The notes under the pieces are model-generated. The model saw only the letters and a list, made by a program, of their open reading frames with translations, was not told the origin of the DNA and did not search any database. Positions 1,343 through 4,111 of a stretch of 4,215 nucleotides of DNA are shown one piece after another. Position 1 is the first letter of the stretch. Every line of letters begins with the position of its first letter. Where the stretch lies: sequence record NC_001890.1; one strand, 5' to 3'. A program made the position numbers and the translations under genes. This DNA is from Escherichia phage Qbeta.

Positions 1343-1744
1343 ATGGCTAAATTACAAGCTATCACTTTAAGTGGTATTGGGAAGAACGGTGACGTTACTC
1401 TGAACCTCAACCCGCGTGGGGTAAATCCCACCAACGGTGTTGCCGCGCTTTCAGAAGCGGGTGCAGTTCCTGCATTGGAGAAGCGTGTTACAATTTCTGT
1501 ATCACAGCCTTCTCGCAATCGTAAGAACTACAAAGTTCAGGTAAAGATCCAGAACCCAACCTCTTGCACTGCAAGCGGTACTTGTGACCCTTCAGTTACT
1601 CGTTCGGCTTATGCTGACGTGACGTTCTCGTTCACGCAGTACAGCACTGATGAGGAACGTGCACTCGTACGAACAGAGCTTAAAGCCCTGTTGGCGGATC
1701 CAATGCTTATCGATGCTATCGATAACTTGAATCCGGCGTACTGA
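1343..1744 (+). CDS. cp: Major coat protein, 133 aa, ending at a leaky UGA
   Basis: ORF MAKLQAITLSGIGKNGDVTLNLNPRGVNPTNGV...QYSTDEERALVRTELKALLADPMLIDAIDNLNPAY. It is near-identical in length to the Qbeta coat protein as I recall it (MAKLETVTLGNIGKDGKQTLVLNPRGVNPTNGV...NPAY), with several recognisable blocks shared. It is the second gene in the canonical order and terminates at TGA 1742-1744 followed by A. Confidence 0.97.
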   Translation: MAKLQAITLSGIGKNGDVTLNLNPRGVNPTNGVAALSEAGAVPALEKRVTISVSQPSRNRKNYKVQVKIQNPTSCTASGTCDPSVTRSAYADVTFSFTQYSTDEERALVRTELKALLADPMLIDAIDNLNPAY

Positions 1745-2332
1745 ACTGCACTTCTTGGTGATGGCTCAGGGCCTAGCCCTGTACCGGGTCCTAATCCGGA
1801 CCCGCCACTGGAGCCGCCGCCAGGGACAGGTAGTTATACCTGTCCTTTCCGTATATGGGATCTTTCCAGCATTTATGAAGCTGCGAATAGTTCCCACTCG
1901 TGGGATATCTATAACGCTGTCGAACTCAGTCCTCGCAAATTTGACGTTACCCTTGATGACCTCTTGGGTAACACAGATTGGCGCGATTGGGACGGCAGAC
2001 TTAGGTATACCACGTTTCGCGGTAGCCGAGGTAACGGATACATTGACCTTGACGCCACTTCGTTGATGCAGGATGAATATCTTACATCTTCGAAGTATTT
2101 AGTGCGTGAGGGGAAACGTCCCGGTGCTTTCGGTTCAATTGAACGGTTTGTTTATCTTAAATCGATAAACGCATACTGTTCTCTTAGCGATATTACGGCC
2201 TACCACTCCGACGGAGTGGTAGTTGGCTTTTGGCGCGACCCGTCAAGCGGGGGAGCCATACCATTCGACTTTAGCGAGTTTGATTCGAACAAATGTCCGA
2301 TCCAAGCCGTTATTGTCGTTCCTCGTCTTTAG
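1343..2332 (+). CDS. A1: A1 read-through protein (coat plus C-terminal extension, about 329 aa), made by occasional suppression of the coat UGA at 1742-1744; a minor capsid protein needed for infectivity
   Basis: Codon-by-codon reading shows the frame stays open from the coat UGA (1742-1744) to TAG at 2330-2332, followed by an in-frame TAA at 2333-2335 (tandem stops). The 122-aa ORF 1964..2332 in the track is in the same frame (1343 and 1964 are both congruent to 2 mod 3) and is the distal part of this extension. The extension reads TALLGDGSGPSPVPGPNPDPPLEPPPGTGSYTCPF...GNGYIDLDAT...GAFGSIERFVYLKSINAYCSLSDITAYHSDGVVVGFWRDPSSGGAIPFDF...KCPIQAVIVVPRL, which matches the Qbeta A1 extension as I recall it. 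A 329-aa total equals the Qbeta A1 length. Confidence 0.92.
1742..1744 (+). other. Leaky UGA termination codon of the coat gene (programmed read-through site; context UAC-UGA-A)
   Basis: TGA at 1742-1744 followed by A at 1745 and 195 further sense codons in frame. In Qbeta the coat UGA is read as Trp at a low percentage to give A1 (established knowledge). Confidence 0.88.
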
Positions 2333-2346: not shown

Positions 2347-2368
2347 CTGCATGTCAAAGACACTGCAG
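2347..2368 (+). promoter_or_regulatory. Putative translational operator hairpin spanning the replicase start codon (coat-protein binding site that represses replicase translation, and likely packaging signal)
   Basis: CTGCAUGUC-AAA-GACACUGCAG folds by eye as a 5-bp lower stem (2347-2351 with 2364-2368), a single unpaired C2363, a 4-bp upper stem (2352-2355 with 2359-2362) and a 3-nt AAA loop, with the replicase AUG (2351-2353) inside the 5' arm. The Qbeta operator (AUGCAUGUCUAAGACAGCAU as I recall it) is also a 3-nt-loop hairpin with one bulge containing the replicase AUG. Confidence 0.75.
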
Positions 2369-4111
2369 TCGCGTAAGTCGCTTAGCGGAAAACTCCGCCG
2401 CGCTGCGAACACAAGAATCGTGGTTGAAGGTAACCTCGCACTGTCTATCGCGAATGATCTATTATCCGCGCTAGATGTAGAACCGTTTAATTCGGAAGAA
2501 GACTGTATAAGTCGTTCACCGAAATTCGGCATCTCACCAGATCAATTTAGGAATTCCTATCTTCGTGCTGAGATAATGTCGAAGTACGATTCTTTTAGCC
2601 TAGGTATTAATACCGAAGCCGTAGCATGGGAAAAGTTCCTAGCTGCGGAGGCTGAGTGTGCTAAGACGAATCTGAGACTCTATAGGCCTAACTACAATGA
2701 GGATTTCAATTTCTCATTGGGTGAGACATGTATTCACATGGCTCGCCGAAAAATAGTTAAGCTATTAGGAGATTCAGTTCCGTTTGAGGCTGTGTTGCGA
2801 CATTGCCGGTTTTCCGGCGGTGCCACAACAACGAATAGCCGTCTATACGGCCATCCGTCCTTCAAGTTTGCTCTTGCGCAAGAGTGTACCCCACGGGCTG
2901 TTCCATATGTGCAAGCTTTAAAGGCCTGTACAAACATGGACCTTGGTATTACCAAGGTTAGCCCTTTCAATAAAGCAGTTACTGTACCAAAGAACAGTAA
3001 AACTGATCGCTGCATCGCTATCGAGCCAGGCTGGAATATGTTTTTCCAGTTGGGCATTGGTGGCGTAATTCGCGAAAAGTTGCACTTGTGGAATATCGAC
3101 CTGAATGATCAGACGATTAACCAGGTGCGCGCATATTCAGGCAGCTGTAGCAATGAACTTGCTACAGTGGATCTCTCGAGCGCGAGTGATACTATTTCGC
3201 TTGCGCTCGTTGAGCTCCTGCTACCCCCTGCGTGGTTTAAAGTCCTTACGGACCTTAGGTCACGAAGGGGTATGTTGCCAGACGGTAGAATCATTACCTA
3301 TGAGAAAATTTCCTCAATGGGTAACGGTTTCACCTTCGAGCTCGAGTCGCTTATATTTGCAGCTCTTGCTCGGTCTTTATGCGAGTTACTGAACTTACAA
3401 CCGTCGAGTGTCACGGTCTATGGCGATGATATTATATTGCCATCAGACGCGTGCAGCTCGTTGATTGAAGTTTTCTCCTACGTAGGTTTTAGAACCAACG
3501 AGAAGAAGACCTTTTTCGACGGGCCGTTCCGAGAGTCGTGCGGAAAGCACTACTTTATGGGCGTTGACGTCACACCTTTCTACATACGCCACCGTATAGT
3601 GAGTCCCTCTGATCTCATACTGGTTTTGAACCAGATGTATCGTTGGGCCACGATTGATGGCGTATGGGATCCTAGGGTATATCCTGTATACACCAAGTAC
3701 AGACGTCTGCTGCCGGATATTCTCCGCAGAAATGTCGTACCTGATGGATATGGTGATGGTGCCCTCGTCGGATCTGTCCTTACCAGTCCTTTCGCAGAAA
3801 ATCGCGGTTGGGTTCGGCGTGTGCCGATGATAATTGACAAGAAGAAAGACCGAGTGCGTGACGAGCGTGGTTCATATCTCTATGAACTATGGTCGTTACA
3901 GCAGCTCGAATGTGACAGTGAGTTCCCGTTCAACGGGTCGCTGGTTGTTGGTACCAACGATGGAGTTTGCACTTACCGACACCGAGAGCGGGTTTCTACC
4001 GCTATCAGTGATTCGGTTGGCGCATACGACATCGTATGGATACCGTGCAGTAGTCGTGTCCTGGCTCCCTACGGGGACTTCCGGAGGCACGAAGGTTCTA
4101 TCCTAAAATAG
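2351..4111 (+). CDS. rep: RNA-dependent RNA polymerase, replicase beta subunit, 586 aa
   Basis: Longest ORF, last in the canonical order, ATG 2351 to TAG 4109-4111. It contains the catalytic YGDD motif (TVYGDDIILPSD; YGDD encoded at 3419-3430) and the other palm-domain blocks recalled from the Qbeta replicase (MSKT...LRRAANTRI, CRFSGGATTTN, PFNKAVTVPKNSKTDRCIAIEPGWNMFFQLGIGG, YEKISSMGNGFTFELESLIFA, FRESCGKHY, CSSRVLAPYG). The length is close to the Qbeta beta subunit (about 589 aa). Confidence 0.97.
   Translation: MSKTLQSRKSLSGKLRRAANTRIVVEGNLALSIANDLLSALDVEPFNSEEDCISRSPKFGISPDQFRNSYLRAEIMSKYDSFSLGINTEAVAWEKFLAAEAECAKTNLRLYRPNYNEDFNFSLGETCIHMARRKIVKLLGDSVPFEAVLRHCRFSGGATTTNSRLYGHPSFKFALAQECTPRAVPYVQALKACTNMDLGITKVSPFNKAVTVPKNSKTDRCIAIEPGWNMFFQLGIGGVIREKLHLWNIDLNDQTINQVRAYSGSCSNELATVDLSSASDTISLALVELLLPPAWFKVLTDLRSRRGMLPDGRIITYEKISSMGNGFTFELESLIFAALARSLCELLNLQPSSVTVYGDDIILPSDACSSLIEVFSYVGFRTNEKKTFFDGPFRESCGKHYFMGVDVTPFYIRHRIVSPSDLILVLNQMYRWATIDGVWDPRVYPVYTKYRRLLPDILRRNVVPDGYGDGALVGSVLTSPFAENRGWVRRVPMIIDKKKDRVRDERGSYLYELWSLQQLECDSEFPFNGSLVVGTNDGVCTYRHRERVSTAISDSVGAYDIVWIPCSSRVLAPYGDFRRHEGSILK

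Follow-up and report, generated by a model that had tools for sequence, protein, structure and literature searches.

Read-through of the Qbeta type, reportedly described by Weiner and Weber in 1971, is the classic case with which programmed read-through of stop codons was first exemplified. In E. coli, UGA is decoded by release factor 2 and is the leakiest of the stop codons, and it leaks more when the base on its 3' side is an A. In Qbeta, the UGA at the end of the coat gene is read as tryptophan in about 5% of passes, and translation then continues for about 600 nt (PMC6071253; PMC7026636 Table 1; PMC6526423). The product of this read-through, A1, is present in the capsid in a few copies and is needed for infectivity (PMC13114773, where the demonstration that Qbeta infectivity requires A1 is credited to Hofstetter et al. 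1974), and evolution experiments tie mutations in the read-through domain to the efficiency of entry (PMC12469967). The database records of M11, Qbeta, FI and SP all annotate the identical nested pair of CDSs, with notes on a leaky stop codon.

The window analyzed here (the whole stretch of 4,215 nt) has the layout of such a phage. The program-made ORF list contains three large ORFs on the plus strand, at 56-1321, 1343-1744 and 2351-4111. The first encodes the maturation/lysis protein A2 (Phage_mat-A, Pfam PF03863, 56-1318, plus strand, E 1e-225) and the last the beta subunit of the replicase (RNA_replicase_B, Pfam PF03431, 2351-4108, plus strand, E 4e-239); the gene order is A2, coat/A1, replicase beta subunit, in an ssRNA genome of about 4.2 kb from which a separate lysis gene is absent. 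In a megablast search of a phage collection, M11 (AF052431) aligned end to end with the window at 88.8% identity, and the Qbeta isolates were about 75% identical to it. An exact-sequence look-up returned entries for “Qbeta virus (strain MX1)” for all four proteins of the window (GenBank AAC14698-AAC14701, RefSeq NP_046749-NP_046752, UniProt O64306-O64308). The coat protein is exactly AAC14699.1/NP_046751.1, and the 329-aa conceptual product with Trp at the UGA is exactly AAC14700.1/NP_046750.1/UniProt O64307 (A1_BPMX1), which is annotated as “Minor capsid protein A1, Qbeta virus (strain MX1)”. There is thus no difference between the product of the window and the A1 of MX1, and the coat protein, A2 and the replicase are likewise identical.

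Because the four proteins match exactly, the window is the deposited complete genome of Qubevirus durum strain MX1, and because the matching entries include an annotated A1, the read-through reported here is not new: the leaky coat UGA and A1 are already known and annotated for exactly the MX1 sequence. The sequence became public in the late 1990s, as did the annotation of A1, and the present analysis adds nothing to the biology; the case serves as a validated positive control, in which a true recoding event was recovered from raw sequence. Two names in the NCBI-sourced entries are misleading for a levivirus, namely “minor head protein” for the major coat protein and “head maturation protease” for A2, the maturation/lysis protein.

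All features of the coat/A1 locus lie on the plus strand. The CDS of the major coat protein, which is also the N-terminal domain of A1, starts with ATG 1343 and extends over 133 codons including the initiator Met (1343..1741). It is followed by the leaky UGA stop, i.e., the recoding site (1742..1744), with an A as the next base (1745). From there, frame 0 is free of stops over 585 nt, or 195 codons (1745-2329), and the tandem terminators UAG-UAA (TAG 2330-2332, TAA 2333-2335) end A1. The complete A1 read-through CDS (1343..2332) encodes 329 aa, or 35.9 kDa when Trp is placed at the UGA, and the conceptual junction reads ...NLNPAY-W-TALLGDGSGPSPVPGPNPDPPLEPPPGTGSYTCPFR. The original prediction, which had placed the coat ORF, the UGA with its following A, the 195 further sense codons up to the tandem TAG-TAA and a 329-aa product of about 36 kDa from the letters alone, was accurate in all of these coordinates and sizes. 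According to the protein alignment, the extension begins with a linker that is Gly/Ser-rich and then Pro-rich (TALLGDGSGPSP..., 1745..1780); this linker is the fastest-evolving part and contains indels between strains. The Read-through domain follows (Pfam PF16814, 1781..2326, A1 residues 147-328), and within it lies a Pro-rich segment, the Qbeta counterpart of which forms a polyproline-II helix.

Both parts of the fused product have full-length homologs. Levi_coat (PF01819) covers A1 residues 2-133 (profile positions 1-132 of 132, E 2e-72), and the coat part matched the Qbeta capsid chains in the PDB with an E-value of about 3e-69. Read-through (PF16814, cut-off 27 bits) covers residues 147-328 as a full-length match (positions 1-182 of 182, E 8e-131). 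The strong similarity of the extension to that of Qbeta A1, originally proposed without any database search, is borne out by the latter match and by the alignment of residues 144-328 with the Qbeta A1 domain (PDB 3RLC/3RLK, E 6e-95), at an identity of about 74% (tblastn). When the extension was used as a tblastn query, 83 phage records were found; every one belongs to Qubevirus and carries an annotation as A1 or read-through protein. Identity was 92.7% to M11 (extension residues 31-195), 72-75% to Qbeta-like isolates and 38-48% to phages of the SP/FI type.

The open frame behind the coat gene could be a product of chance or a relic, or the UGA could be a sequencing error or a recent mutation of a sense codon, which would leave A1 as the sole product or remove the recoding altogether; the evidence reduces this reading to a negligible probability. 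In the five other frames of 1745-2329, there are 4, 23, 4, 5 and 11 stops. Just 1 of 20,000 dinucleotide-preserving shuffles of the 585-nt extension stayed open, and an analytic estimate gave 1.6e-4, so that the probability of such an open frame is about 1e-4. The coat domain stops at residue 133, which is precisely the end point of the Levi_coat profile and of the Qbeta capsid structures, and this, too, speaks against such a reading. The stop itself is invariant among relatives. Each of the 10 annotated Qubevirus genomes has exactly one internal stop, always UGA. UGA-A, an open frame of 195 codons and TAG-TAA recur in all seven metagenomic genomes, whose A1 regions are 90-98% identical to that of MX1. 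UGA-A is likewise present in two shorter metagenomic contigs; the UGA is thus found in 9 of 9 metagenomic contigs of independent assembly, one of which shares 97.9% identity with MX1 in the A1 region. Taken together, the UGA and, after it, 195-199 open codons were found in 17 of the 17 relatives with a complete A1 region. An in-frame stop between the UGA and the terminators, which resequencing might have brought to light, is seen in none of the independent genomes, the seven metagenomic ones being open over all 195 codons.

The features conserved throughout the genus are the UGA and the codons preceding it (...NLNPAY). The base after the UGA is an A in all Q. durum-type genomes and a G in four of four Q. 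faecium genomes (SP/FI), and A1 is terminated by TAG TAA in all of the former and by a single TAA in the latter. The UGA-A context, to which attention had been drawn in the original prediction, therefore holds for MX1 and for the Q. durum type as a whole but does not extend to the genus. Because SP and FI use UGA-G and have kept the read-through protein, the A after the UGA is neither obligatory nor the whole signal; it may favour read-through, but does not define it.

In the coat frame, purifying selection persists past the UGA, including the interval 1745-1963. Nei-Gojobori estimates of dN/dS on the codon alignment of MX1 with M11 and with Qbeta were 0.10 (vs M11) and 0.16 (vs Qbeta) for the coat (1343-1741), 0.18 and 0.47 for 1745-1963, 0.08 and 0.13 for 1964-2329, and 0.10 and 0.22 for the whole extension. 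The higher values of 1745-1963 are due to the Gly/Pro-rich linker, in which the indels between strains are also located; in Qbeta, A1 residues 133-150 are a disordered linker (PMC12469967). Differences from M11 at codon positions 1/2/3 numbered 3/3/12 and 7/4/32 in the two halves of the extension, with an excess at third positions in both. Codon log-odds, with the genes of A2 and the replicase as the training set, were positive in frame 0 only, in the coat, 1745-1963 and 1964-2329 alike (in 1745-1963, +0.33 in frame 0 vs -0.10 and -0.75). Codon usage and conservation thus run on without interruption through 1745..1963 (dN/dS 0.18 vs M11, third-position bias, positive frame-0 log-odds), as would be expected from the original prediction.

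Gene-calling programs treat the locus differently. It had been anticipated that an ORF caller would miss 1745..1963 and miscall 1964..2332 as a 122-aa gene, and this is exactly what the program ORF list does, with one ORF at 1343..1744 (133 aa) and a TTG-started one at 1964..2332 (122 aa). For metagenomic relatives, the JGI gene calls consist of a 133-aa coat and a stand-alone gene of 156 aa or 88 aa that matches PF16814, and the gene table of a Logan contig has no gene in the extension stretch. The stand-alone calls in MX1 and in the relatives would suit an extension that is a separate gene with an internal start, e.g., at TTG 1964, with 1745-1963 as a non-coding spacer, and the TTG at 1964 is indeed kept in all Q. 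durum genomes. Nevertheless, we regard a separate gene as extremely improbable. Initiation at TTG 1964 is rejected because homology begins about 185 nt upstream of it (PF16814 and 3RLC align from residues 144-147, nt 1772-1781), because the supposed spacer is under the in-frame selection described above, and because the equivalent codon in SP/FI is CTT or CTC, which is no start, with the domain conserved there. TTG 1964 is, moreover, the first in-frame ATG/GTG/TTG past the UGA and lies deep within the domain, and the triplets before it (GAT GAC CTC) are without a Shine-Dalgarno-like purine run. Domain architecture, selection, conservation in 17 of 17 relatives and the identical annotated protein all argue for what had been claimed at the outset, a recoding event that gives A1 and not two genes.

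The environmental MX1/M11-like genomes (L011-L016 and L019) are without an A1 annotation because the callers split or omit the Read-through domain. Standard pipelines still split or drop this domain in Qubevirus contigs, and read-through-aware annotation of ssRNA-phage metagenomes is therefore still worthwhile. In L011 (a 5307-nt JGI contig), a complete MX1/M11-like genome is preceded by, and fused to, a 344-aa ORF (EHFETSMRDPAFYQLF..., positions 1-1037); a stretch of 20 residues from this ORF is absent from the replicase of L011 itself, and L011 is probably a chimeric assembly.

Other ORFs in the region were considered and set aside. In the +1 frame, which is stop-poor over the A1 extension, a TTG-started ORF of 103 aa (1755-2066, plus strand) has a position like that of a levivirus lysis gene; it is not conserved. 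We rejected an overlapping gene in this frame because the run of open codons shrinks to 72 in L019 (97.9% identical over A1) and to 90 in M11, and is located elsewhere in Qbeta; the 103-aa ORF has probably arisen by chance. The minus strand has ORFs of up to 107 aa, which were set aside as being without support. We know of no translation of the minus strand in Qbeta-like phages.

With all of this considered, the coat UGA of MX1 is almost certainly leaky, and is read through in the same frame by tRNA-Trp to give the 329-aa minor capsid protein A1. Ribosomes that initiate at AUG 1343 would translate the coat and arrive at UGA 1742-1744, where the majority would terminate via release factor 2, setting free the major coat protein of 133 codons. 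For a minor fraction (about 5% in Qbeta), a normal tRNA-Trp would misread the UGA, and translation would go on without a change of frame over 195 codons, up to UAG-UAA 2330-2335, yielding A1 of 329 aa and about 36 kDa. A1 would then join the T=3 capsid via its coat domain, and the few copies per virion would be required for infectivity. Trp insertion, the frequency of about 5% and essentiality are biochemistry from Qbeta, whereas MX1 is known here from its sequence; because the searchable literature yielded no protein-level data specific to MX1, we infer read-through, Trp insertion, its frequency, incorporation into virions and essentiality in MX1 by homology with Qbeta. No evidence against the read-through interpretation was found in the sequence.

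How the UGA is passed could be imagined otherwise: it might specify selenocysteine, or ribosomes might get past it by frameshifting or hopping and not by a near-cognate tRNA-Trp. UGA is, after all, the codon for selenocysteine, and a stable RNA structure is predicted after the stop (see below). The extension and the coat, however, share one frame, and frameshifting is unnecessary because the frame is unchanged across the UGA. As to selenocysteine, no bacterial SECIS family was matched in the window (an Rfam scan of the whole window, with E-values up to 1, returned as its sole match a chance miRNA with an E-value of 0.71), and the homologous UGA of Qbeta is reported to be read as tryptophan (PMC6071253; PMC6526423). 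Any such mode of passage is accordingly a very remote prospect, and misreading of the UGA by tRNA-Trp is the reading that we retain.

The region just downstream of the UGA is predicted to fold into a stable structure. In the MFE fold, a branched RNA domain (1752..1826, plus strand, with an outer helix 1744-1749/1830-1835) starts 7-12 nt after the UGA. Its MFE is -49.4 kcal/mol (z -2.9), none of 200 shuffles was equally stable, and the equivalent domain of Qbeta has a z of -2.8. In the predicted core stem, Gly codons of the linker are paired with Pro codons of the polyproline segment. This core is invariant in the Q. durum alignment, which therefore speaks neither for nor against the pairing; in the analogous stem of SP/FI, there are three compensatory pairs among four sequences. 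Synonymous-site conservation among the ten Q. durum-type genomes was 0.80-0.86 in 1745-1800 and 1808-1852, the highest in the A1 gene, vs a gene-wide mean of 0.40, the counts being small (5-7 informative codons per window of that scan). In Qbeta, the synonymous change C1760U, which adjoins the post-UGA stem, was fixed together with an A1 substitution in an evolution experiment, and its effect was attributed by the authors to RNA structure (PMC12469967). That the predicted domain tunes the frequency of read-through, and hence the A1:coat ratio, in the manner of the 3' stem-loops that stimulate read-through in some eukaryotic viruses, is conceivable but in our view unlikely; the domain could just as well be among the many elements that give the packaged genome its structure. 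To our knowledge, no stimulatory RNA element has been shown in Qubevirus.

Two further RNA elements known from Qbeta have counterparts in MX1. In the cryo-EM model of the Qbeta genome, the loop of hairpin RT4 kisses a hairpin of the replicase gene (PMC8880383). The MX1 homolog of RT4 is the hairpin 1867-1884 in the A1 extension (loop AUGA, 1876-1879), and that of Qbeta R22 is the hairpin 2838-2851 in the replicase gene (loop CUAU, 2843-2846). The loop pair is ACGA/UCGU in Qbeta and AUGA/UCAU in M11, Qbeta strain BZ1 and metagenomic genomes, which is a compensatory change. With AUGA/CUAU, three of four pairs are possible in MX1, one of them a G·U, and with AUGA/UUAU, four pairs including a G·U are possible in the close relative L019. 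The counterpart of the translational operator bound by the coat protein is a hairpin at the start of the replicase gene (2347-2369, around ATG 2351); in MX1, its 3-nt loop is AAA and a C is bulged out on the 3' side, in contrast to the UAA loop and the bulged A on the 5' side of the Qbeta operator hairpin.

Among the known systems other than MX1 itself, M11 was the best megablast hit. Its A1-protein (AF052431, AAC06251.1; the record notes a “leaky stop codon”) has the same CDS layout with a 1-nt offset, and UGA-A, a length of 329 aa and TAG-TAA are shared; by the Nei-Gojobori count, the two proteins are separated by 25 amino-acid differences, of which the coat domain accounts for about 7 and the extension for about 18. 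Qbeta agrees with MX1 in the coat of 133 codons, UGA-A, the 195-codon extension, TAG-TAA and the order A2, coat/A1, replicase; divergence is greatest over the linker and the initial third of the domain (dN/dS 0.47), and some Qbeta-like isolates have 1-3 additional linker residues. The phages of the SP/FI/NL95 type (Qubevirus faecium) share with MX1 a single leaky UGA after a coat ending in ...NLNPAY and a homologous Read-through domain, the extension being 38-48% identical, but differ from it by a G as the +1 base, a coat of 132 codons, an A1 of 330-332 aa and a single TAA. Beyond the phages, the read-through systems of eukaryotic viruses have no sequence homology to that of Qubevirus, and their stops, contexts, translation machinery and stimulatory elements differ. 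Nevertheless, the luteovirus CP-RTD, MuLV gag-pol and the TMV replicase follow the same logic, in which leakage at a stop yields a minor isoform with a C-terminal extension in a fixed ratio, and on luteovirus particles the CP-RTD is, like A1, displayed as a minor capsid protein (PMC7026636 Table 1).
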